37,520 bases of DNA from a virus (lineage: Duplodnaviria; Heunggongvirae; Uroviricota; Caudoviricetes), in the IMG/VR virus record IMGVR_UViG_2541047896_000017; one strand, written 5' to 3'. Numbering within the stretch: position 1 is the first letter of the stretch; the number at the start of each line of letters is the position of its first letter. Under the pieces are notes generated by a model. That model made no database searches. It was given only the letters and a program-made list of their open reading frames with translations, and was not told the DNA's origin. Of this stretch, positions 57-37,520 are shown in pieces. The position numbers and the translations under genes were made by a program.

Positions 57-83
57 GAAAAGAAAAAAGGCCGCAGAGCGGCC
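57..83 (-). terminator. Putative rho-independent terminator for the minus-strand int-distal operon
   Basis: Plus strand shows A-run then GGCCGC-aga-GCGGCC; on the minus strand this reads as hairpin followed by TTTTTTCTTTTC, downstream of the 193..723 gene. Confidence 0.5.
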
Positions 84-192: not shown

Positions 193-723
193 TCAGCCAA
201 CAAATTTAGCAACAAATACAGCAACCGCCGCCGTGAAAATGGTTGTGCATACTGGCACAATAATGCCACTCCAACGCCACTTCGTATTATCATCAACCTT
301 GTCAAACCGCCGATTCATCTCATCCATAATCTTGTCAAAGCGTTTATCCATCGCTTCGGTAAGCTCACCCTTCAGGCTGTTAATGTCTGATTTGAGCTGC
401 TCTTTCAGGTGAGCTGTATCAGATTTAAGCTCACCTTTCAGATTCGCAATATCGCATTTAAGATCACCTTTCAGATGAGCAATGTCTGCTTTGAGCTCAC
501 CTTTCACCTCACCAACATCAGCTTTGGTTGAGAGGTTTGTAGTGCGTTCAGTAAGCGTCGCAAGGTCGTTTCTTGTTAGCGATAAATCACCTTCGAGCCG
601 CTCAATTCGCCTTTCAAGTTTATCTGACATTCCGCCTCCACTATCACCGCCTCCCCCATCGAAAGAGTTGCCAATGTCCTCACGAATAAGGGTTATGCCA
701 TGCTCACTTTTAGCATATGCCAC
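193..723 (-). CDS. Coiled-coil protein with about five 11-residue repeats (LKGELKxDIAH-like), Gly-rich N-terminus and C-terminal hydrophobic anchor; function unknown
   Basis: ORF track 176 aa; repeats visible in the translation; C-terminal IIVPVCTTIFTAAVAVFVAKFV is a likely transmembrane segment; start abuts stop of upstream gene. Confidence 0.6.
   Translation of the reverse strand: MAYAKSEHGITLIREDIGNSFDGGGGDSGGGMSDKLERRIERLEGDLSLTRNDLATLTERTTNLSTKADVGEVKGELKADIAHLKGDLKCDIANLKGELKSDTAHLKEQLKSDINSLKGELTEAMDKRFDKIMDEMNRRFDKVDDNTKWRWSGIIVPVCTTIFTAAVAVFVAKFVG
385..530. repeat. About 33-bp imperfect tandem repeats (4-5 copies) encoding the 11-residue protein repeats
   Basis: Repeated units atttaagctcacctttcag... 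with 33-bp periodicity visible in the sequence. Confidence 0.6.
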
Positions 724-1131
724 TCAGATTCCCTCCCAAACTATATATCCTTTGTCTCTTGCCCAACAAACAACTGTGTGGGCTGTATATGTGGATGTGA
801 AGCCGCAATAAGAACATGACACTTCATACCGAGTATTGTAGATGTTAATGGGCTCGTTCTCCTTGTGTATGGGAGTGACATATTCCCAATCATTTGAATC
901 ATCATAATCATCAAGTTCAGGGTCTGTGCCGTGAACAACCGTATGTGGAATAAACAAATCTGGGCGCCCACACGAGAGACAAGAGGTTCTGGCTCCTCTA
1001 TCTTTGAGGAATTGAATAAATAATTTGGGCGAAATCTGTTGCAGAACCTGCAAATGCCCACGTTCATTATCATTAAGAGACCTGTCTGCATATGGAAAAT
1101 CATCAAATTTAAGAGGCTTCATATAAGGCAT
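724..1131 (-). CDS. Hypothetical protein with two CxxC motifs (putative zinc ribbon); start overlaps the last codons of int
   Basis: ORF track frame; ATG at 1131-1129; CLSCG and CSYCG motifs; overlaps int stop (1111-1109), implying co-transcription with C and int. Confidence 0.55.
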   Translation of the reverse strand: MPYMKPLKFDDFPYADRSLNDNERGHLQVLQQISPKLFIQFLKDRGARTSCLSCGRPDLFIPHTVVHGTDPELDDYDDSNDWEYVTPIHKENEPINIYNTRYEVSCSYCGFTSTYTAHTVVCWARDKGYIVWEGI

Positions 1132-2846: not shown

Positions 2847-3185
2847 ATGCTGAAGCAACGCCGTAATTTTCGTACCGAAACGGAACGCCAAGCTAACCGT
2901 TTCGCTACCAGCGCATCACGCAGCAACATCCGCTACAGCCTGAGCGAGACGCACGCAACGCCAGATGGCCATACAGTAAAACAAATTGGCGAACACACCT
3001 GGCTGATTGAAAAAGCTGGAATCGTGGTTCACAGATGCCAACGCAACCCATTTACCGGAAACCGCATTTTTGCTCTGAGCAACGGTGACAATCAGTTTGG
3101 ACAGGATTTCACATTGTACGAAGCACTTCGCACGGTTGATCGTCTGCTTCGCGGGCAAAGTTTTATTAAACAGACTGATTTATAA
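2847..3185 (+). CDS. Hypothetical early protein
   Basis: 112 aa ORF with GAGG-type RBS upstream; in the early operon. Confidence 0.5.
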   Translation: MLKQRRNFRTETERQANRFATSASRSNIRYSLSETHATPDGHTVKQIGEHTWLIEKAGIVVHRCQRNPFTGNRIFALSNGDNQFGQDFTLYEALRTVDRLLRGQSFIKQTDL

Positions 3186-3195
3186 CAGGTGCGTT

Positions 3196-3474
3196 ATGAC
3201 CAAAGAGCATGCACAAGGTGTATTTATCCGTTTTATTGATTTTCGCGGTGAACTGTTATTGCGCGCATCAGCTATTGATGGAGTTGTCCCATCAGAAAAA
3301 AATGCAGCTACTTACGTTTATCTGAACGGCACGCGCCTGACCGTAGAACTTCCGTACCAGACTGTACACGGAATCATTAGCGAAGCTGAAAAAGCACGTA
3401 AGATTAATGGCGATGAACCCTATATCGAAATTATTTGTATGGATTCAGAAGCTGAAATTCAGAAAGCAGATTAA
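3196..3474 (+). CDS. Hypothetical early protein
   Basis: In-frame ATG at 3196 within ORF 3085..3474; the first 111 nt of that ORF overlap the upstream gene. Confidence 0.5.
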   Translation: MTKEHAQGVFIRFIDFRGELLLRASAIDGVVPSEKNAATYVYLNGTRLTVELPYQTVHGIISEAEKARKINGDEPYIEIICMDSEAEIQKAD

Positions 3475-3485
3475 AGGGCGTTGCG

Positions 3486-3728
3486 ATGGGCAAAGAATAT
3501 AAAACTCTCATTAACAAAGCACTTGAGCGTTTTTATTTTCGCTTAAGTGCATCAGGTGCTCATGCTGAACGTGCAGCCCGTGACTCATTGACCAGGGCAA
3601 TCCGGAGTCTGTATGACGTGGCTTTTTACGCTGATGATCTGGATGCACTTAACGAACTTTCCGAGCTGATCTGTGCCGCAGAATGCGGGGAACATATTGA
3701 ACCGTATAAGCTGGGGAATATTGCATGA
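3486..3728 (+). CDS. Hypothetical early protein
   Basis: 80 aa ORF, tight spacing in operon. Confidence 0.5.
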   Translation: MGKEYKTLINKALERFYFRLSASGAHAERAARDSLTRAIRSLYDVAFYADDLDALNELSELICAAECGEHIEPYKLGNIA

Positions 3729-3838
3729 GTATATTTATCTCATGGCTTGTCCTGATTATTTCGGTGGTCTGCGCCATTGGGATTATGCAAATTATTCATT
3801 CAGTAAAAAAGATTGAACGCATTTTCACTGGCGAATAA
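3725..3838 (+). CDS. Small hydrophobic peptide (37 aa, single predicted TM helix)
   Basis: ATG at 3725 overlapping the upstream stop (ATGA); translation MSIFISWLVLIISVVCAIGIMQIIHSVKKIERIFTGE; below the 60-aa ORF-track cutoff. Confidence 0.4.
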   Translation: MSIFISWLVLIISVVCAIGIMQIIHSVKKIERIFTGE

Positions 3839-3925
3839 CAGCGCAAATAAAAACCCTAGGTTAAATAAGAAAATGTAAAAACAATCCGCATTCGCGGAGG
3901 TATTCGCACACGCCCAGGAGGCGTA

Positions 3926-4129
3926 ATGGCAATTAAGCATTTTCCTGTCGTTCGTTTCACTTCCAGAGGACGTGAATACGAAGTCGACGAACGCCTGATT
4001 ACCACAATCGACAAACACCGCTCAGAAAAGGATGCACACCACATCTATCTCATTGACGGTACTTACTTCTGCGCCACTAATGTGGCGCGGGTGAATCTTA
4101 TCCGACAGGTACAGGATCCACGCAAATGA
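3926..4129 (+). CDS. Hypothetical early protein
   Basis: 67 aa ORF with strong RBS (caggagg) upstream. Confidence 0.55.
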   Translation: MAIKHFPVVRFTSRGREYEVDERLITTIDKHRSEKDAHHIYLIDGTYFCATNVARVNLIRQVQDPRK

Positions 4130-4842: not shown

Positions 4843-7679
4843 GTGAGTTTGCATGGAGCTGGAATGAACCACGGCCAGCCATTGATCCGGCCAGATTTAC
4901 GGAGCGCAGGCAGGAAACTGAAACCGACCTGCAACGCGCCATCCGTTACTACCTTGAGGCAGACAAAAAGGCCCAGGAAGAACAGGAAGCGAAAGAGGAA
5001 GCCTTTTTCGCACAATCCGCCATGGGTAAAAAACTCATGGCATCCCTTGAGGAAGCCGGACAGCGTGAAAAGCTGGCACAAAGCATCATCAGTAAGCGTC
5101 GGGCAACAGAACAAGACCCGGTGGCCCGTGCCTTTGCCACACTGAAGGTGCTTCCCGTTTATCTGCGAGAACCCCTGAGCCGCCACCTCTCGTTCCTGCG
5201 CAAGAAGCAGGAAGCCGATCGTCAGAAAGGCAAAAAGAGCTGGCAGGCCGAACGCTACGCGCGCGGAAACCTGCGCAAAATATTCGAACGTCTGGAGCGC
5301 ACCGACAGCCGCTGGCTGACACAGGGGTATCGCTCCCTTGCCGGACGCGAACGCCTGGACGATTTGCTTTACCTGCCGCAGCTCAACAAACACCAGATAC
5401 AGACGCTGGCCACCATGACGGCGGCGATGTTCAGCAGCACCTTCGAAAAACTCTGCGATGGCTTTGGCGCGACCGATGGTGAGCTGACCATGGATGTAAC
5501 GCTGAAGGCGTATCAGATGCTGGCCCGCATGGCGTTACACCTGCACGCCATGCCTCCACATTATGACGCACTGACAACAGATAGAGATCGGAGGAACGAA
5601 CCGGACACGGAGCTGCTGCCAGGCGCAATCCTTCGCCTGACCTGTGCTGAATGGTGGAAACGCAAACTGTGGCTGTTACGTTGCGAGTGGAGAGAAGAAC
5701 AACTCCGCGCCGCCTGTCTGGTTTCCAGAAAAACATCGCCCTATCTGAGCCAGGACGCGTTAAGCGAGTTTCGCGCACAGCGCGAGAAAACACGCGATTT
5801 CCTGAAAAGTTTCATGCTGGAAAACGAAGACGGGTTCACGATTGATCTCGAGACAGTGTATTACGCGGGAGTAAGTAACCCGGTTCACCGTAAGGCAGAA
5901 ATGATGGCCACCATGAAGGGGCTGGAACTTCTGGCCGAGGCCCGTGGCGACAAAGCGGTGTTTCTGACTGTCACCTGCCCATCAAAATACCACGCCACAA
6001 CAGAGAACGGTCATCCGAATCCCAAATGGAACGGGGCCACCATGCGCGACTCCAGCGATTACCTGGTTAACACGTTTTTTGCGGCGGTCCGCAAAAAACT
6101 GAACCGCGACGGTCTGCGCTGGTATGGCATCCGCACGGTGGAGCCTCACCATGACGGCACCGTGCACTGGCATATGATGGTCTTTGCTCATCCGGAAGAA
6201 ATCGACAGCATCGTGGCCATCACCCGCGATATTGCCATTCAGGAAGACCGCCACGAGCTGGGCAATGATATTACTCCGCGCTTTAAGGTGGAGTATGTCG
6301 ACGGCTTAAAAGGCACACCAACCAGCTATATCGCGACCTACATCGGAAAAAACCTGGACAGCCGCGCCGTGGATGGCATCGACCCGAAAACGGGCAAACC
6401 ACGCGTTGACCACGAAACCGGAAAATCAATGGCCGAGAGCGTGGAGCGCGCCATCGGCTGGGCGCGCCTTCACCGGGTCCGCCAGTTCCAGTTCTTTGGC
6501 ATCCCCTCCCGTCAGGTGTGGCGTGAACTGCGCCGCCTTGCCAGCCAGATGGCACGCAACCCGGAAGGCCCGCAACGGCTGAAGGATGACGCAATGGATG
6601 CGGTACTCGCTGCCGCTGATGCCGGGTGTTTTGCCTCCTACATTGAAAAACAGGGTGGCGTACTTGTTCCACGCAAGGACTACCTGATTCGCACCGCCTA
6701 CGACCTCGCAGATGAGCTGAACGATTACGGCGAACAGAGCGTACAGATTTACGGGATCTGGTCACCACTCATCGGGGAATCCTCCCGTGTGTGCACGCAC
6801 CCAGATAACTGGAAGCTGGTAAGACGTAAACCGGAAGCGGAAGACAGCACCCGCGAAAATGGTTTTGACCTTCAGGGCGGCCCTGCCGCCCCTTGGACTC
6901 GTGGCAATAACTGTCCCCGTGTACAGGAAACGGACAACAACGGGACAGAACAGCCGGAAGAACGGCCAGCACCGCGGCCGCAGCTTCCTGACGGCGTTGA
7001 CGTGAATGAATGGATGCGCTCACTGAAACGGCACGAACGCCGGGCGCTGATGCATTCGCTGCGTGACAAACAGGCAAAAAACAGCAGTGATGAAATGCAG
7101 AACTGGACACAGAGCCGCAAACAGCCACGGCCTTTGCCTGATAACCACGAGTTACTCGCTAAAGAATGGCGGGAGTCTGCTGAATCTCTCGGCCTGCATA
7201 TCGGTGAACAGCAGATGCAGCACCTGTTACGGGGCGGCAGTCTGTACGTTGACGGCAGCATCATTGCACCGCAGGGATTTGAAATTGTACGCAAACCAGA
7301 TACCCGCCCGGACAGCCGAATCACGCAACTCTGGCAGCGCCTGAGCCGTAATCACGGCGTAAGCAGCACGGAGATCCGCCATAACCCGGTCGCCAGCTAT
7401 CTGGAACAGCTGGGGGCATCAGACCCCGAAGCCGCCGCACACCTGGCATCCACACTTCAGCAGGACCAGAACACCATGAAAACCCCCGTTACCGTGCTTT
7501 CTGACATGCTGCGCGCCATCCGTGACGCAGAGCACGCACAGAGAATCAGTGAAACCACTGAACGCGCCCACCGCAAAGCAGACCTGCTGCGGGGTAGCCT
7601 GACCAGTGGAAACAAAAAACAGACAGAAACGGGACTCACAAATCCCGTAAATGAGCAAAAAACGTGCCGCGATATATGA
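4839..7679 (+). CDS. A: Rolling-circle replication initiator endonuclease, P2 A-like, with long C-terminal extension
   Basis: Contains TVEPHHDGTVHWHMMVF (HUH-like) and YIATYIGKN (paired tyrosines), matching recalled P2 A motifs; about 946 aa versus about 760 in P2. Confidence 0.85.
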   Translation: MSEFAWSWNEPRPAIDPARFTERRQETETDLQRAIRYYLEADKKAQEEQEAKEEAFFAQSAMGKKLMASLEEAGQREKLAQSIISKRRATEQDPVARAFATLKVLPVYLREPLSRHLSFLRKKQEADRQKGKKSWQAERYARGNLRKIFERLERTDSRWLTQGYRSLAGRERLDDLLYLPQLNKHQIQTLATMTAAMFSSTFEKLCDGFGATDGELTMDVTLKAYQMLARMALHLHAMPPHYDALTTDRDRRNEPDTELLPGAILRLTCAEWWKRKLWLLRCEWREEQLRAACLVSRKTSPYLSQDALSEFRAQREKTRDFLKSFMLENEDGFTIDLETVYYAGVSNPVHRKAEMMATMKGLELLAEARGDKAVFLTVTCPSKYHATTENGHPNPKWNGATMRDSSDYLVNTFFAAVRKKLNRDGLRWYGIRTVEPHHDGTVHWHMMVFAHPEEIDSIVAITRDIAIQEDRHELGNDITPRFKVEYVDGLKGTPTSYIATYIGKNLDSRAVDGIDPKTGKPRVDHETGKSMAESVERAIGWARLHRVRQFQFFGIPSRQVWRELRRLASQMARNPEGPQRLKDDAMDAVLAAADAGCFASYIEKQGGVLVPRKDYLIRTAYDLADELNDYGEQSVQIYGIWSPLIGESSRVCTHPDNWKLVRRKPEAEDSTRENGFDLQGGPAAPWTRGNNCPRVQETDNNGTEQPEERPAPRPQLPDGVDVNEWMRSLKRHERRALMHSLRDKQAKNSSDEMQNWTQSRKQPRPLPDNHELLAKEWRESAESLGLHIGEQQMQHLLRGGSLYVDGSIIAPQGFEIVRKPDTRPDSRITQLWQRLSRNHGVSSTEIRHNPVASYLEQLGASDPEAAAHLASTLQQDQNTMKTPVTVLSDMLRAIRDAEHAQRISETTERAHRKADLLRGSLTSGNKKQTETGLTNPVNEQKTCRDI

Positions 7680-7755: not shown

Positions 7756-8715
7756 ATGAAAATTTGTATCGACGACGGCTCCACCAACATCAAGCTGGCA
7801 TGGACTGAGAACGGCGAACGCCGCAACGCCATCAGCCCGAACAGCTTCAAGTCGGAATGGTCTGCGCCGTTCGGTGGCACGCAGCCCGCGAACTACATGC
7901 TTGATGGCGTGCGCTATGGTTTTGATCCGGTCAGCGATCGCTTTGTCCAGACGACCGACACGCAATACCAGTACAGCGATGTGAATATAATTGCCATTCA
8001 TCACGCGCTGGTCAAATCAGGCATCACACCACAGGAAGTGGATGTGGTTGTCACCCTGCCACTAAGCGAGTATTTCGATACAAACGCACAGCCGGACATG
8101 GCCAACATCAACCGCAAAAAAGCGAACGTCATGCGCCCGGTGGAGTACCAGAACGGCGAAGCATTCACTATCCGTAACGTACGGGTTATGCCTGAATCCA
8201 TTCCGGCTGGCTTTAAGGCACTGGCTGACATGAGTCCGTTTGAATCCCTGCTGATTGTGGATTTGGGCGGAACCACGCTGGATGTGGCAAAGGTTCAGGG
8301 GCAACTGGCAGGTATCAGCCAGGTGTTTTGCGATCCACACGTGGGCGTTTCTCTGATGGCCGATGCCGTACTGTCGGTGATGGCCACTAACGGTATGCGC
8401 ACCAGTCACCACATCGCCAATACCATTATCGAACATCGCCATGATGAAGCCTGGCTGCGCCAGCACATCCACAATGACGCGCATTACGCCAGCCTGATGG
8501 CGGTAATTCGTGAAAAGGAAGAAACACTGAAACAACGCGTGATCCGCGCGCTGGCGGGTTTTTCGGGTTACGGGCGGGTGATGGTTGTCGGTGGAGGGGC
8601 GGAGATTGTGGCACCCGCTATCCGCGAAGCCTGCGGAGTTAATGCGACTTTCATCGCGGACGGGGTGCCACAGTTTGCTCTGGTTAATGGGCTGTACGCA
8701 ATGGACAAGGAGTAA
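7756..8715 (+). CDS. parM: Actin-like segregation ATPase, ParM/StbA family
   Basis: 319 aa; N-terminus MKICIDDGSTNIKLAW and motifs VMPESIPAGF, LLIVDLGGTTLD, VMVVGGGAE closely resemble recalled plasmid R1 ParM. Confidence 0.8.
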   Translation: MKICIDDGSTNIKLAWTENGERRNAISPNSFKSEWSAPFGGTQPANYMLDGVRYGFDPVSDRFVQTTDTQYQYSDVNIIAIHHALVKSGITPQEVDVVVTLPLSEYFDTNAQPDMANINRKKANVMRPVEYQNGEAFTIRNVRVMPESIPAGFKALADMSPFESLLIVDLGGTTLDVAKVQGQLAGISQVFCDPHVGVSLMADAVLSVMATNGMRTSHHIANTIIEHRHDEAWLRQHIHNDAHYASLMAVIREKEETLKQRVIRALAGFSGYGRVMVVGGGAEIVAPAIREACGVNATFIADGVPQFALVNGLYAMDKE

Positions 8716-8719
8716 ACCA

Positions 8720-9031
8720 ATGACGACTCCAACCAGACGGATAAGTTTCTATCTGAAGCCCACCGCCGTCAAGAACGAAGGAGAAGCATGCGCCTGGCTG
8801 GACAGCCTTACACCAGAAGCCCGCAAAAGCGGCCAACGCGTGGCTTTTCTGGCCGGGCTGGCACTTCTGAAAATGAATCCGGCAGAGGCTTATCGACTGG
8901 CTGCATGGGCTGGTGATGAAGCGTTATCAGTGACACAAACCAGGACAGAACGCCCCGCATCACAGCCAGTATCAACCGCACAGATAACCAGTCAGATGGC
9001 CGGAAATATCCGGGCGTTATTTCCTGAATAA
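8720..9031 (+). CDS. parR: ParR-like centromere-binding adaptor
   Basis: 103 aa immediately downstream of parM; N-terminal RRISFYLKP...LTPEARKSGQRVAFLAGLALL resembles recalled R1 ParR. Confidence 0.6.
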   Translation: MTTPTRRISFYLKPTAVKNEGEACAWLDSLTPEARKSGQRVAFLAGLALLKMNPAEAYRLAAWAGDEALSVTQTRTERPASQPVSTAQITSQMAGNIRALFPE

Positions 9032-9094
9032 CACAACATCAGGGCGAGTTCGCCCTGCTCTCCACCTCAGAACATAAACAAGGAGAACGACTTA

Positions 9095-9685
9095 ATGAGC
9101 GAAATCAACTATCAGGCATTACGTGAACGTTATTCACCTGTGCCAGTACCGAAATGCCCTATTTGCGGCGAGGAAATGTCAATTCAGCGAATATCTGGAG
9201 CACAGGTTGTTTATGCCTGCTCCGGTTATGGTGATGATGGAGATTTCAAAATTGGCCGAACTCTTGCTGACGAACATTATGAAAAATCACGCGTAACAGT
9301 GTTGGATGTCGGGGATCCTGAAGTATTGGCGCTACTTGATTGGCTGGAAACCAAAGACAACCGAATCGCTGAACTGGAAAAAATCGCCACTGACTATGCA
9401 CTTAAATTCCAGAAAGCACAGGACGCATTAAAGCATGCCGCTTTGCTGCATAGCAGGACGGCGCAACAAACAAATAATTTTGCAGTATCGCTTCCGGACA
9501 TAAGCGAATATTTCATTAATGACGTATTTCAGCCCTTGCGATACGAGCGGGATGTTGAAAGAGCCATCATAAAGGCTGGCGGAAAAGCATTGTGGCAGGA
9601 GAAACACGAGGACAGAACGCATCAGTCATGCGATGTAAATTGTGGATGGTTTAGCCCACTGACGACAGATAAAAATAACACCTGA
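9095..9685 (+). CDS. Hypothetical protein with N-terminal Cys cluster (possible zinc ribbon); accessory gene between A and Q
   Basis: 196 aa ORF with RBS aaggaga; CPICGEEMS...YACSGYG motif. Confidence 0.55.
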   Translation: MSEINYQALRERYSPVPVPKCPICGEEMSIQRISGAQVVYACSGYGDDGDFKIGRTLADEHYEKSRVTVLDVGDPEVLALLDWLETKDNRIAELEKIATDYALKFQKAQDALKHAALLHSRTAQQTNNFAVSLPDISEYFINDVFQPLRYERDVERAIIKAGGKALWQEKHEDRTHQSCDVNCGWFSPLTTDKNNT

Positions 9686-30939: not shown

Positions 30940-31096
30940 AGCTTCAGCCCCTTGTATCCGTTAAATGATTCGGCAACAATCATCACCCACCACGCGCGTA
31001 ATCTCACCCCTGCGCCGTTCTCCCGACCCGGCGACAACAAAAAGCAGTAACCCCCTCTGCACGCACATGCGACCATGCCGCACAGGGAGGGAACAG
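30940..31096. promoter_or_regulatory. Divergent intergenic region upstream of FI (minus) and D (plus); presumed late promoter(s)
   Basis: Position only; no motif confirmed. Confidence 0.35.
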
Positions 31097-32206
31097 ATGA
31101 CCGACACCACCATGCAATTGCTCAGTCAGGGCACAGACCCCGTGAAAATGCCAGATTTTGATATTCTCGCGGAGGGGAAAACGCTGTCAGGCGTGGCAGA
31201 GCGCCTGATGAGCCTGTCACTGACCGACAACCGGGGATTTGAGGCGGACCAGCTCACCATCACGCTGGATGATGCGGATGGTCAGTTGCAGCTACCGCCA
31301 CGGGGCGCGCGCCTGACGGTTCTCATTGGCTGGAAAGGAGAACCGCTGACAGAAAAAGGCACTTACATTGTTGATGAAATTGCTCATGAAGGACCGCCCG
31401 ACAGACTGACCATTTCAGCCAGAAGCGCAGATTTTCGGGATGAATTTAACGTCAAGCGCGAAGTATCCTGGCATGATGTGACCGTTGAACGCGTGGTGTC
31501 TGCAATTGCTCACCGATACGGCCTGAAACCGCAAATCAGCGAAATGCTGATGGATATTGAAATCGACCACGCTGACCAGACCGAAGAAAGCGACATGTCC
31601 TTCCTTACACGCATGGCGGAAATGCTGGGCGCAATCACCACGGTAAAAAGCGGTAATCTGTTATTCATTATGCCCGGTGGTGGCGTGAACGCACAGGGCC
31701 AGCCGTTGCCATCGTTCGCCATCACACGCAGCAGCGGCGATCGCCATCAGTTCCGCATTGCTGACCGCGAGGCGTATACGGGGGTACGCGCTTACTGGCT
31801 TGATCTTAATTACGGGAAAAAGAAAAAAGTCAGCGTGAAACGCCGTAAACCGCCAAAACCGAAAAAAGAGAAAAGCAGCAGCCGTGAAGGTGATTATATG
31901 GAAGGCGCGGAAGGCAATGTGTTTGTGTTACGCAAGACTTATCAGAACGAGCAGGCAGCAAGACGCGCAGCGGCGGCAAAGTGGCAACAACTACAACGCG
32001 GAGCCGCATCATTCTCCATCACGCTGGCACGTGGACGAGCAGAACTCTACCCCGAAATGCATGGCACGGTAACAGGCTTTAAAAGCGAGATTGATAATCA
32101 GGACTGGATTATTGCGAAAGCCGAGCACACCATTGATAACAGCGGCTTTACCACGCAGCTTGAGCTTGAGGCAAAAATCCCGGAATGGATAGCGGAAACA
32201 GAGTGA
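31097..32206 (+). CDS. D: Late control/tail protein D
   Basis: ATG 31097 with RBS gggaggg; about 369 aa (P2 D about 387); position before ogr. Confidence 0.8.
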   Translation: MTDTTMQLLSQGTDPVKMPDFDILAEGKTLSGVAERLMSLSLTDNRGFEADQLTITLDDADGQLQLPPRGARLTVLIGWKGEPLTEKGTYIVDEIAHEGPPDRLTISARSADFRDEFNVKREVSWHDVTVERVVSAIAHRYGLKPQISEMLMDIEIDHADQTEESDMSFLTRMAEMLGAITTVKSGNLLFIMPGGGVNAQGQPLPSFAITRSSGDRHQFRIADREAYTGVRAYWLDLNYGKKKKVSVKRRKPPKPKKEKSSSREGDYMEGAEGNVFVLRKTYQNEQAARRAAAAKWQQLQRGAASFSITLARGRAELYPEMHGTVTGFKSEIDNQDWIIAKAEHTIDNSGFTTQLELEAKIPEWIAETE

Positions 32207-32416: not shown

Positions 32417-33010
32417 CTAAATCTCAGCAATCTTTTTTTTACTGTGCTGTTCTATTATCAACTCTGCTTCCGCTTGGTATTCATGAGCTAACTCTCGAAG
32501 AATTCGGGCAAATCGATGAAAGCCTAGAAGTTCCATTGCATCAGACTTAGTGTGATATTGTTGGGCCAACTCCAATTCCGGTTTACCTTCTGGGTCAACA
32601 ATGTAGACACCACGCGAATTTATTATCGCATTCTTATAACCAGTACGCACTTTATCAAGTTCACGTCTATTCAAAAACTCGGCCAGTTCTGGAAGTATCC
32701 AATGCTCGTCATTTGCAGGGCTAAAAATTAATATGCTTCCAATCCTATGATAAGCAAAATCTAAATGGCCTGACTTTTCGCATTCTGTTTGGACAAAATC
32801 AAACCAGTTATTAAACGCATTGACATCAAACTTGCCTTCAGCATCAACACCCGGAATCTTTTTCCAATCATCAAGTAAATAGAGTGAGTTTTTGGCAATA
32901 TTTATTTCACTTTCAGATAGTTCTTTACTTGCTTTTTGAAATTCTGATCGATACGCATATTGAATGACTTCACAAAAAAAACTGGGTTCACTTGCAAGTT
33001 TTTTCTCTAA
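32417..33010 (-). pseudogene. C-terminal fragment (about 197 codons) of the IS5-disrupted large cargo gene
   Basis: Frame open from the IS5 junction to stop at 32417 with no plausible start codon; in frame with the 34206..36408 part once IS5 and one CTAA copy are removed. Confidence 0.75.
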
Positions 33011-34205
<1,195 letters not shown>

Positions 34206-36408
34206 CTAATACTTGAGGATGCAACGAATCATTAGCCCCCCTGTTAATTACAGGTAGGTATGCCCATTCAATCTTTACTAAGTCGTCATCTGAAACAGTG
34301 TTATCATTTTGAATATAATTCACAAGTTCATTAAATGAGTGAATATCAAACCGCTCAATATTTTCTGTGGTTCTAATTGATTGCAATAGAGCAAGCACAA
34401 CCTTACTGCTATCAACTGAATTATCGATATGCAAAATTTTAGATAAACAATCTATTGCCATCAAGGGACGGTCTACTTTAATCAAGCAGTCTATAGCAAA
34501 ATAAATTTCTTCCGTTGAATCACAGCTGTATGCATTAACAAGAGTATTTTTCCAATACTCGAAAGGAAAATCATCAAATGAAGCGTTTAATGCATCCCAT
34601 GTTTCTTTTTTAAACGGTAACAAAAGAAAAAAAGCAATCTTTTCTTGAGCACTCCAGTCATTAATAACTGTCAACACCCATGATTTTCCTTCTCTGTAGT
34701 TTTTAGCCTGTACATAACCAGAAGCAAGAGAATTTTCCTTTTTAATATCACTAACAATAAGTTTTTTCAGTATATCTAAAGGAATTTCTAGATCTTCTGC
34801 GACCAGGCTACTACCAACAAACTCAGGCCTTTCAATAGATAGAGAGAATTCTAAGACTCCATCAATACCATTAATAGCATATATTTCGCATATTGATTGC
34901 CCTCGTTCTTTTGTCAACCTTTCTTCTTGGTCCCGCCAGTTTCCATTTTCATCAAATAGGAAGTAATTGTTTTGTGCAAAAAGTCGCTTGCTATAAAGCA
35001 TAGGATCTTCGGGCTTCAAGACTGTAGAAACATCTTTGATTTTTTCATTTTGTTCTGGTTGCATTGCCCAATAAGCACCTGAGAATCTTTTGTTTTTGTT
35101 ATAAACTTCTAAACATTTTTCCCACACCGCTAACTTCAATTCAGCACTATCTGTTTTTTTAGAAAAATCATACAATAGTTTAATTGCATCATCGAATTTA
35201 AATGGCGCTAAACTACCAATATTTTCAACTAAATCAACAAGTCTTAATGATGATTTACTTGCCAATTCAATTGTTAATTGAGTGTATATTTCAATCTGAG
35301 TACGGCACTCATCACCCGATGGCCTTTTATTAAAACCGTTAGGAATAAAGTTTCTAAAAGTTGGAATATGTGTGCCAGATGTTACTTGCGTGTTGTTGGG
35401 TAGCAACTGAACTAAAACACGCCATGCTGTATCGGGCCACTCCCTTGCCAATGCGTTGAAAGCAGCAATACGTCTATCTATATCAGCTGTAGTATGAGGA
35501 AGCCATGGTAACAATATGTTGATTATCGAGTTAAGTGGCCTGTTAGCCCAATTGCCACCAGGATCATGGCTATCCAGCTCCCCTAATATTACTAAAGAGC
35601 GAGATAAATAGTTAGGCGCCCAAGCTAATCCTTCAATAGCCCATAGCAGTCCTGTCATATAATTCCGACCTGAAATTCCACCGATACCTTCCTGTGCAAA
35701 AAGTGAATCAAATGGCTTGTCTTGGTGAGATGCAGCATTTTCCACTTCGTCGATAAAACAGTCAGGAGCACTTTCCGCAAGCATAACTTGAATATCTTGC
35801 GTACTAGCCCATAATTGCCAGCTAGAAGCCGAAAAAACCTCTTTAACCACACTTGAGGCGCAATATTGCCCTTTATATTTTGAGCAATTAGTAAGTAACT
35901 CTTGCTTTGTTGCAACTAATGCCAACCCTTCGGATAGTCCTTTCCTTATTAATCGGCTGTGTGGTAAAACCTTCCCATAAATTACTGCTGCATAACGCTC
36001 TTCAGGTGCCAGTTCAAATTGTGGGTCGATAGTTTTAAAAACGGATACAACAGTCGTCCGAAACAAATCCAAATGATCATCGAATAATCTTGACGATACC
36101 GTTTGAAATGTTTGTATTCTATCTTTAAAACTCCAAGAACCTCTCTCATGAATCAAAGGACTATCTTGCATCCCTTCAATTATTCTTAATTTTCGAATCC
36201 AACTGTCATATGACTCACCAATAAGGCTTGTAATTATATCAATATCACCATTATTTTTTTCATCCCAGCAACCGACTAAAACAGCAATCGCTAACTCAGT
36301 CGCATAATCAACATTATCACTATTGTATACAATTAAGTTACCAGCAACATTATGGCCTGGTCCGGTATGATTTTGACTAATTGAACTGCAGCTATGAATG
36401 TTATCCAT
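34206..36408 (-). pseudogene. N-terminal part (about 735 codons) of large AT-rich cargo gene, truncated by IS5
   Basis: ORF-track 743 aa ORF whose last 7 codons plus stop come from IS5; start ATG 36408 (RBS gagg) or GTG 36414. Confidence 0.75.
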
Positions 36409-36413
36409 AGACA

Positions 36414-36776
36414 CTACCTCGTAATTTTATTTCCACCAATATTATCACCAGTGCCACTATGGTTTTGAATAATGACAGTTGCTGCATGAGGTTTTATAGA
36501 CGAGAGTATTTTTTGAATTTCACTACTATCCAATAGTTTTCTTTCAATTGCTATTTCACTCATTTCATCGTTCAAAGACAGTTTTTCAAGCTCTTTAGCT
36601 AAAGCAGGGGCTACAGCCTCATCAACAACCCAATTTTTTAACTTTTCTTTTATTGAAGTTGCAGTAATCGAAACATGATGTTTAAGCATGTCATAAACTA
36701 TGCCAGAAAGTATCGCCGAAGATAAAAAATCCATAACAATTTCCTTTAACGTAAGATATTTACTATCCAGATACAT
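36414..36776 (-). CDS. Small protein (120 aa) tightly coupled upstream of the large cargo gene; unknown function
   Basis: Stop TAG overlaps/abuts the large gene start; AT-rich; C-terminal QNHSGTGDNIGGN motif. Confidence 0.6.
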   Translation of the reverse strand: MYLDSKYLTLKEIVMDFLSSAILSGIVYDMLKHHVSITATSIKEKLKNWVVDEAVAPALAKELEKLSLNDEMSEIAIERKLLDSSEIQKILSSIKPHAATVIIQNHSGTGDNIGGNKITR

Positions 36777-37379: not shown

Positions 37380-37520
37380 ATGTCGCAAAAATCGCTTACG
37401 GCCATCACGTTCTGCGTGACGGCAATCCTCATCATCTGGATGCTGCACGGTTCGCTGTGCGAAATACGGATGAGCTTCTGGGGAGCGGAGTTTGCGGCGT
37501 TCTTACAGTGTAAGCAGTAA
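37380..37520 (+). CDS. Hok/Gef-family small membrane toxin (46 aa)
   Basis: Translation MSQKSLTAITFCVTAILIIWMLHGSLCEIRMSFWGAEFAAFLQCKQ; SLCEIR and E(F/V)AAF(L/M) match recalled Hok-family motifs; RBS aaggag; overlapped out of frame by ORF 37199..37513 (Mok-like). Confidence 0.7.
   Translation: MSQKSLTAITFCVTAILIIWMLHGSLCEIRMSFWGAEFAAFLQCKQ

Follow-up and report, generated by a model that had tools for sequence, protein, structure and literature searches.

What is the function of a gene pair that sits between the integrase gene and the attachment (att) site of a P2-like prophage? The question is raised by a 37,520-nucleotide stretch of viral DNA (IMG/VR record IMGVR_UViG_2541047896_000017, here called the window), in which two small open reading frames (ORFs), ORF1 and ORF2, form a 930-bp cassette (window 193-1122) that fills the interval from the int stop codon to the attP arm repeats, where P2 has nothing. 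ORF1 is predicted to be an acidic cytoplasmic Cys4 zinc-ribbon protein, and ORF2 a tail-anchored inner-membrane protein with a cytoplasmic N-terminal tail, linker and stalk. By comparison with related loci, the pair is a mobile cassette whose genes are always adjacent and translationally coupled, an uncharacterised version of a familiar type of prophage cargo. An earlier reading made from the letters of the window alone, referred to below as the sequence-only reading, had suggested lysogenic conversion or exclusion; by analogy, we tentatively favor a lysogen-expressed exclusion or abortive-infection module of the RexAB type, which we regard as possible though short of probable.

The pair lies inside the prophage, between int and the attachment core

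The window is a P2-like Escherichia coli prophage sitting in the ihfA terminator, and its positions 1-83 lie just upstream of btuC. These positions match every one of 5,426 complete E. coli genomes, host identity stops at window 83 in all 5,426, and at the empty site the sequence past this point runs into the ihfA stop codon. In the O55:H7 lysogen DEC5B, the other end of a related prophage, beside ihfA, reads ttattg, then aaagaaaaaaggccgcagagcggcc, then tttttagttag; because the same 25 nt recur at this attR, we place the att core at window 59-83. Comparison with empty sites, which are without the region, together with the mapped core and the attR match, locates attL and puts both genes inside the prophage, not among host genes beyond it.

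Starting from the gene for a C-type helix-turn-helix repressor (2151-2462), the first of a presumed Pc operon, the minus strand, which the sequence-only reading had not named, carries in order int (tyrosine recombinase, 1109-2101, stop codon TAA at 1109-1111), ORF1, ORF2, a 109-nt attP arm, and the core with its terminator, an order in which read-through from the lysogeny promoter can reach the pair and stop at the core. The arm kept at attL (84-192) contains direct repeats, TGTGGTCA and TGTGGATCA, at about 172-192, which abut the ORF2 stop codon, with the junction to the cargo exactly at their edge. From what is known of P2, they probably serve Int as arm-type sites. The DEC5B prophage has a similar repeat pair, TGTGGACA and CGTGGAAC, close to its attR (L009, about 6125-6150). 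A terminator scan returned an intrinsic terminator, GGCCGCTCTGCGGCC followed by six T residues, at 83-69 on the minus strand, 109 nt past the ORF2 stop codon. The sequence-only reading had likewise ended the transcript behind ORF2, and the hairpin is there; its nature had been missed, as the attL core (59-83) holds the intrinsic terminator hairpin of host ihfA (69-83, minus strand, T-run toward 59), which is also the terminator of the cassette. Equally overlooked was position 1303, which is A in the window and G in six relatives and changes CAG to TAG in int. With this in-frame amber codon (1301-1303), int loses the recombinase domain's C-terminal part, and the prophage, its int truncated before the C-terminal catalytic part, is probably unable to excise.

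ORF1 and ORF2 travel together as a cassette

Thirteen distant ORF1 homologues were sampled, and each has a partner gene downstream. Where the two genes overlap, they do so by up to 14 nt; otherwise the partner starts within 3 nt of ORF1 or at a GTG abutting the ORF1 stop codon. The ORF2 layout of tail, coiled coil and C-terminal transmembrane (TM) helix is found in 12 of the 13 partners, the remaining one (L039) being without a Gly-run or clear coiled coil. In P2-like prophages that occupy several att sites, the cassette follows int (the window, L002, L006, L007 and L037); in L043, also a P2-like prophage, it separates C from int; and in the lambdoid phages L041 and Enterobacter phage ENT1 (L018) it comes directly after the gene for an S24 CI-type repressor. 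In each of these orders, C-int-pair (window), C-pair-int (L043) and cI-pair (L018 and L041), it lies downstream of the repressor gene and shares its strand, and such a position, at the 3' end of a lysogeny operon, has been reached repeatedly and independently. The case supports the view that P2-like phages, in their int-att interval, and lambdoid phages, in the slot behind cI, take their cargo from one common pool. Free-standing chromosomal copies are also seen, either with cdaR and yaeH as neighbours or within an island (L015/L016 and L039), and because the cassette occurs in such copies and in tail operons as well, co-expression with a repressor is not obligatory; a place beside the repressor gene is common.

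Window 1-191/193 is common to other prophages in the ihfA/btuC att site, after which they carry either a gene for a 131-aa protein alone or a divergent cassette. In O157, O145 and O103 strains, the stalk and TM helix of ORF2 are about 99% identical to those of the window, a distant homologue of 166 aa stands in place of ORF1 and the N-tail is a different one, with identity to the window resuming at about position 651. By this comparison, ORF1 and the N-tail of ORF2 are exchanged together between relatives. Natural variants are of two kinds: one stalk occurs with either of two ORF1/N-tail types, and stalk length varies in whole 11-residue units. This ORF2 is found in 39 of the 5,426 complete E. 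coli genomes (0.7%) and this type of ORF1 in 15, and carriers of the cassette include the pathogenic lineages O157, O145, O55 and O103. Another P2-like prophage (L013/L014) has, between int and the cassette, a gene at 3111-3947 for a 278-aa protein with N-terminal hydrophobic segments, so that several cargo genes can stand one after another in the int-att slot.

Both ORFs are intact in 13 of 13 close relatives (10 distinct sequences), and all indels are multiples of three, including those between the ORF1 stop codon and an internal ATG of ORF2 that is described below. Pairwise ratios of nonsynonymous to synonymous substitution rates (dN/dS) are about 0.3 for ORF1 and 0.2-0.3 for the stalk and TM helix of ORF2; for the N-tail, where the substitutions counted are very few, most pairs give roughly 0.4-0.6. 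Such patterns mark both genes as real and under purifying selection.

ORF1 is a probable Cys4 zinc-ribbon protein

ORF1 (724-1122, minus strand) encodes 132 amino acids with a pI of 5.1. The sequence-only reading had started it at 1131; a Shine-Dalgarno (SD) sequence, GGAG at 1132-1135, lies 9 nt ahead of the ATG at 1122 but abuts the ATG at 1131, and homologues at 63% identity or above begin MKP or MKT. On this spacing and these N termini the upstream start was dismissed, and the ATG at 1122 is most likely the start codon. From there ORF1 still overlaps the end of int, as had been proposed, by 14 nt (ATGAAGCCTCTTAA), and the PGAP annotation gives the same overlap in two relatives.

The two CxxC motifs described earlier are present as CLSC (residues 48-51) and CSYC (residues 103-106), with Cys codons at 979-981, 970-972, 814-816 and 805-807. 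Across 64 aligned family members, the only invariant residues are the initiator Met, C48, C51, C103, C106 and W120, and thus all four Cys are retained throughout. The AlphaFold2 (AF2) model, with a predicted local distance difference test score (pLDDT) of 91, places two N-terminal helices ahead of a beta-rich, zinc-ribbon-like body and a C-terminal helix. Members of the family have weak matches to several zinc-ribbon Pfam families. ORF1 itself matches phrog_4293, to which no function is assigned, with nothing significant in Pfam, NCBIfam or PADLOC, no fold match in the PDB, and no significant match in a profile search of PDB sequences.

An exhaustive profile search of 1.84 billion proteins defined the family as 79 clusters at 50% identity, all of 71-180 aa. 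Close homologues form a small set in E. coli, Klebsiella and Salmonella, all of 130-132 aa. A plasmid collection held no ORF1 homologue, a wide-alignment search for related loci yielded no conserved stretch, and a scan of species-representative genomes yielded no relative. ORF1 is left unannotated by RefSeq/PGAP in most close relatives (e.g., L011 1631-2108 and L001 4643-5120).

ORF2 is a tail-anchored coiled-coil protein with a candidate second start

ORF2 (193-723, minus strand) encodes 176 amino acids from a GTG codon at 721-723. This codon directly adjoins the ORF1 stop codon (TGA, 724-726) in the same frame, so that the gap between the two genes is 0 nt and not the single nucleotide of the sequence-only reading, and GGGAGGG at 731-737 offers a good SD sequence. 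RefSeq relatives are annotated from an internal ATG at 628-630, which gives 145 aa. We take the first 31 codons to be coding because they are conserved as protein (E. coli VAYAKSEHGITLIRED.. versus Klebsiella VPQTKREQGVTPIRKD..), because the tail begins with ATG in one lineage (L010), and because nearly all distant partners have equivalent tails that end in a Gly-run and Met ([RD]FPQH...GGxGGGG(D)M). With ORF1 missing from annotation and ORF2 begun at the internal ATG, gene catalogues under-count the cassette.

The AF2 model of ORF2 (pLDDT 70) has residues 1-31 disordered, followed by a helix at 32-64, a break at 65-66, a helix at 67-140, a hinge, and a helix at 145-175. The N-tail (residues 1-31; 631-723), predicted to be disordered, contains a G(I/V)T(L/P)(I/L) motif and then the Gly-run. 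Beyond it extends a coiled-coil stalk of about 109 residues with one beta-layer and a varying number of hendecads; the beta-layer motif, LSTKAD (residues 64-69; 517-534), interrupts the coiled coil at the helix break of the model. Five hendecads, (V/L)KGELKADIAH and variants, occupy residues 73-127 (343-507), and Tandem Repeats Finder reports a 33-nt period in 3.2-3.8 copies at 402-525. The number of repeats differs among relatives: homologue lengths step by 11 aa (112, 123, 134, 145 and 156), and the alignments display clean gain or loss of one to three 11-residue repeats. A conserved MDKRFDKxD..TKW(R/K) segment precedes the hydrophobic C-terminal TM helix (residues 145-175; 199-291). The earlier description of a membrane-anchored coiled-coil protein built from 11-residue repeats is therefore borne out by the repeat array, the hendecads and the C-terminal helix.

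According to Hartmann et al. (PMC4786415), the stalk of DUF1640 membrane proteins carries at its start a beta-layer motif, [aliphatic]-A-T-K-[polar]-[DE]. LSTKAD of ORF2 fits this motif, NFATKAD/V variants occur in partner proteins, and relatives of ORF2 carry DUF1640 or CCDC90 names at NCBI. Because the window ORF2 scores 26.7 bits against the CCDC90-like Pfam profile PF07798, under the cut-off of 33.5, we hold membership of the DUF1640/CCDC90-like family as likely only; some homologues have precomputed PF07798 matches. With this family, which includes MCUR1, CCDC90B and prokaryotic members, ORF2 shares a coiled-coil stalk, an N-proximal beta-layer and a C-terminal TM anchor, whereas a Gly-linked N-tail, a variable hendecad number and an obligate zinc-ribbon partner are undescribed for the family.

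The internal ATG may also be used in its own right. GGAGG at 635-639 precedes this codon (Met32), and together they form a candidate second start (628-639) for a 145-aa product without the N-tail. A GGAGG lies 3-10 nt before an internal Met or Val codon in 9 of 10 lineages, where random synonymous codons would produce it with a probability of 0.1-0.3 per lineage, a contrast inflated by the shared ancestry of the lineages. We propose the second start because the GGAGG-ATG arrangement is conserved across lineages beyond what codon usage predicts, and both a long and a tail-less form may be made. Dual-start membrane proteins are known in lambda, namely S105/S107 and sieB/esc; ORF2, which has no homology to them, would resemble them if its in-frame internal SD sequence and start yield an N-shortened product beside the full-length one. 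Read-through of the single TGA or TAA that separates the two genes in frame in E. coli and Klebsiella lineages, which would yield an ORF1-ORF2 fusion, was considered and dismissed as a general mechanism, since elsewhere the genes overlap by 1, 4, 8 or 14 nt in different frames.

Relation to known systems

Homology and structure searches recovered the two-gene family and returned no match to a described defence system, to Pfam (for ORF1) or to a PDB fold; in the literature we found no description of the pair. Matches of ORF2 to ZorA, LmuB and LeoBC in PADLOC, and to Apolipoprotein, Mer2 and other families in Pfam, were set aside as coiled-coil composition: they cover helical segments only, and the Pfam scores are all under the cut-offs.

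Lambda rexAB directly follows cI, the slot held by the cassette in ENT1 and L041. Like RexA/RexB, ORF1-ORF2 is a two-gene module at the 3' end of a presumed repressor transcript that combines one cytoplasmic and one inner-membrane protein. RexA is not known to be a zinc ribbon, and RexB is polytopic, whereas ORF2 has a single C-terminal TM helix and a long stalk; PADLOC, Pfam and fold searches gave no homology of ORF1 or ORF2 to the Rex proteins. Borrelia Bdr proteins, which are prophage encoded, also combine an N-terminal coiled coil, a C-terminal TM anchor and a variable number of 11-residue repeats. XhlA (PBSX haemolysin-like, PF10779) is likewise prophage encoded, with an N-terminal coiled coil and a C-terminal TM anchor. 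Only some partner homologues match its profile, at best with 20.2 bits against a cut-off of 34.7, and no lysis genes adjoin the cassette in the window. We know of no zinc-ribbon partner for XhlA or Bdr.

The setting is that of P2-like cargo hotspots, in which variable cargo occupies a fixed site with core-gene flanks, and the int-att slot holds unrelated genes in related prophages. This interval has been recorded as a minor defence hotspot of P2-like phages, with 3% of P2 systems (2026 Nucleic Acids Research survey, PMC13586616), and a cI-int hotspot is known in K139-like phages (Rousset 2022, PMC9122126). Unlike the cargo of these hotspots, ORF1-ORF2 is not among the described or tested systems (PMC9122126, PMC13586616), and PADLOC models are blind to the pair.

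Proposed function and alternatives

As an exclusion or abortive-infection module, the cassette would share the Pc transcript of C and int in the lysogen, with termination at the att-core hairpin. Zinc-ribbon ORF1 would dock on the N-tail of ORF2, which we propose because ORF1 and the N-tail swap as one unit between relatives, and the tail-less isoform from the internal GGAGG-ATG could set the number of docking sites per stalk oligomer. In the least certain step, ORF1 would act as a cytoplasmic sensor or regulator that controls ORF2 as the membrane effector, with a RexAB-like logic, and on superinfection ORF2 would perturb the inner membrane such that the incoming phage is aborted or excluded. 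Transmembrane proteins are presumed to serve as the suicide effectors of known anti-phage systems (Rousset et al., PMC9122126). The positional part of the sequence-only reading holds, in that the pair is prophage cargo inside attL, at the 3' end of the lysogeny operon, in a recurring placement and in an int-att hotspot; its functional part is an analogy.

A more specific form of this proposal appears doubtful to us, namely an undescribed two-component anti-phage system in which a zinc-ribbon sensor would sit on the flexible tail of an oligomeric, tail-anchored alpha/beta coiled-coil stalk, hendecad number and dual starts would tune the membrane response, and the whole would be shared by P2-like, lambdoid and Mu-like prophages. 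Were the pair a defence or exclusion module, it would add two protein types unseen in anti-phage immunity, a Cys4 zinc ribbon without structural relatives and a DUF1640-like tail-anchored stalk, and would provide the first function for bacterial DUF1640-like proteins.

Several points weigh against an exclusion module. The cassette also occurs within tail-gene clusters (L042 and L044), where expression in the lysogen is unexpected unless it has its own promoter, and in the window the int amber codon could lower expression of the downstream cassette by polarity. PADLOC-DB v2.0 (2023) gave zero matches for ORF1, and the PADLOC matches of ORF2 are limited to the coiled-coil stretches of the proteins named above. 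A stalk with a single TM helix makes an unusual effector, a trimeric state of ORF2 is assumed by analogy with DUF1640, and the docking and isoform ideas are based on comparative patterns.

Some of the same features would suit an addiction module, in which ORF2 is a membrane-damaging toxin and ORF1 its neutraliser, and which stabilises a prophage or island without acting against phages. The genes are small, tightly coupled and mobile among prophages, islands and chromosomes, the N-tail of ORF2 co-varies with ORF1, partner proteins have a weak likeness to the XhlA haemolysin, and a Hok/Gef gene lies at the other end of the same prophage. However, ORF1 is the first gene, ORF2 differs from known small membrane toxins in its length and its mostly soluble coiled coil, and no family match to any toxin-antitoxin component was obtained; we consider this explanation unlikely, with the proviso that toxin-antitoxin-like and abortive-infection behavior are not mutually exclusive. 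We give a similarly small chance to lysogenic conversion without phage exclusion, by a membrane-tethered scaffold that recruits a zinc protein or host factors and alters stress tolerance, envelope or virulence. The layout of ORF2, comparable to that of tail-anchored YqjD/ElaB or mitochondrial MCUR1/CCDC90B, its DUF1640/CCDC90-like beta-layer motif, the presence of the cassette in lysogeny operons and the pathogenic carrier lineages O157, O145, O55 and O103 are all in keeping with such a scaffold. Yet rarity, at 0.7% of E. coli genomes, and replacement by unrelated cargo at the same site are more typical of conflict genes, and no link to any host pathway was found.

A role in the phage's own cycle, whether in lysis timing (XhlA/holin-associated type), DNA entry or exit at the membrane, or integration and excision, would be consistent with the copies within tail or late gene clusters (L042 and L044), with weak XhlA, holin and spanin profile matches and with the position next to int and attP. 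The cassette is, however, absent from P2 and most P2-like prophages and gives way to unrelated genes at its site, no phage genes lie near the free-standing chromosomal copies, and all lysis-related matches fall far under the family cut-offs, which makes such an accessory quite improbable. That PGAP skips ORF1 in most close RefSeq relatives might point to chance ORFs, or to host genes outside the prophage. Such an origin is refuted by the attL/attB/attR mapping, with the core at 59-83 and the region absent from empty sites, and by the conserved homologues, invariant Cys, purifying selection and confident AF2 model; we regard its chance as negligible.

Other cargo in the prophage

The prophage holds further cargo at other sites. 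In the A-to-Q hotspot, three plus-strand genes (7756-9685) encode a ParM/StbA actin-like segregation ATPase (PF06406, 3.7e-82), a StbB-type plasmid stability protein and an Ead/Ea22-like protein, a plasmid-partition module within an integrated P2-like prophage. An IS5-family transposase gene (33157-34137, minus strand; DDE_Tnp_1 and DUF772; element ends at about 33010-34200) lies between gene D (30965-32206) and cargo on the ogr side. This last cargo, beside ogr (34183-36776, minus strand), is an AT-rich pair of genes. The product of one has 743 aa and matched nothing in Pfam or PADLOC; that of the other has 120 aa and contains a Het-E N-terminal domain (PF20701, 1.7e-38). Together they have the look of another candidate conflict system, likewise uncharacterised. 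Near the attR end, past ogr, a plus-strand ORF (37381-37520) belongs to the Hok/Gef toxin family according to the annotation of near-identical relatives, and the window ends there, before attR.

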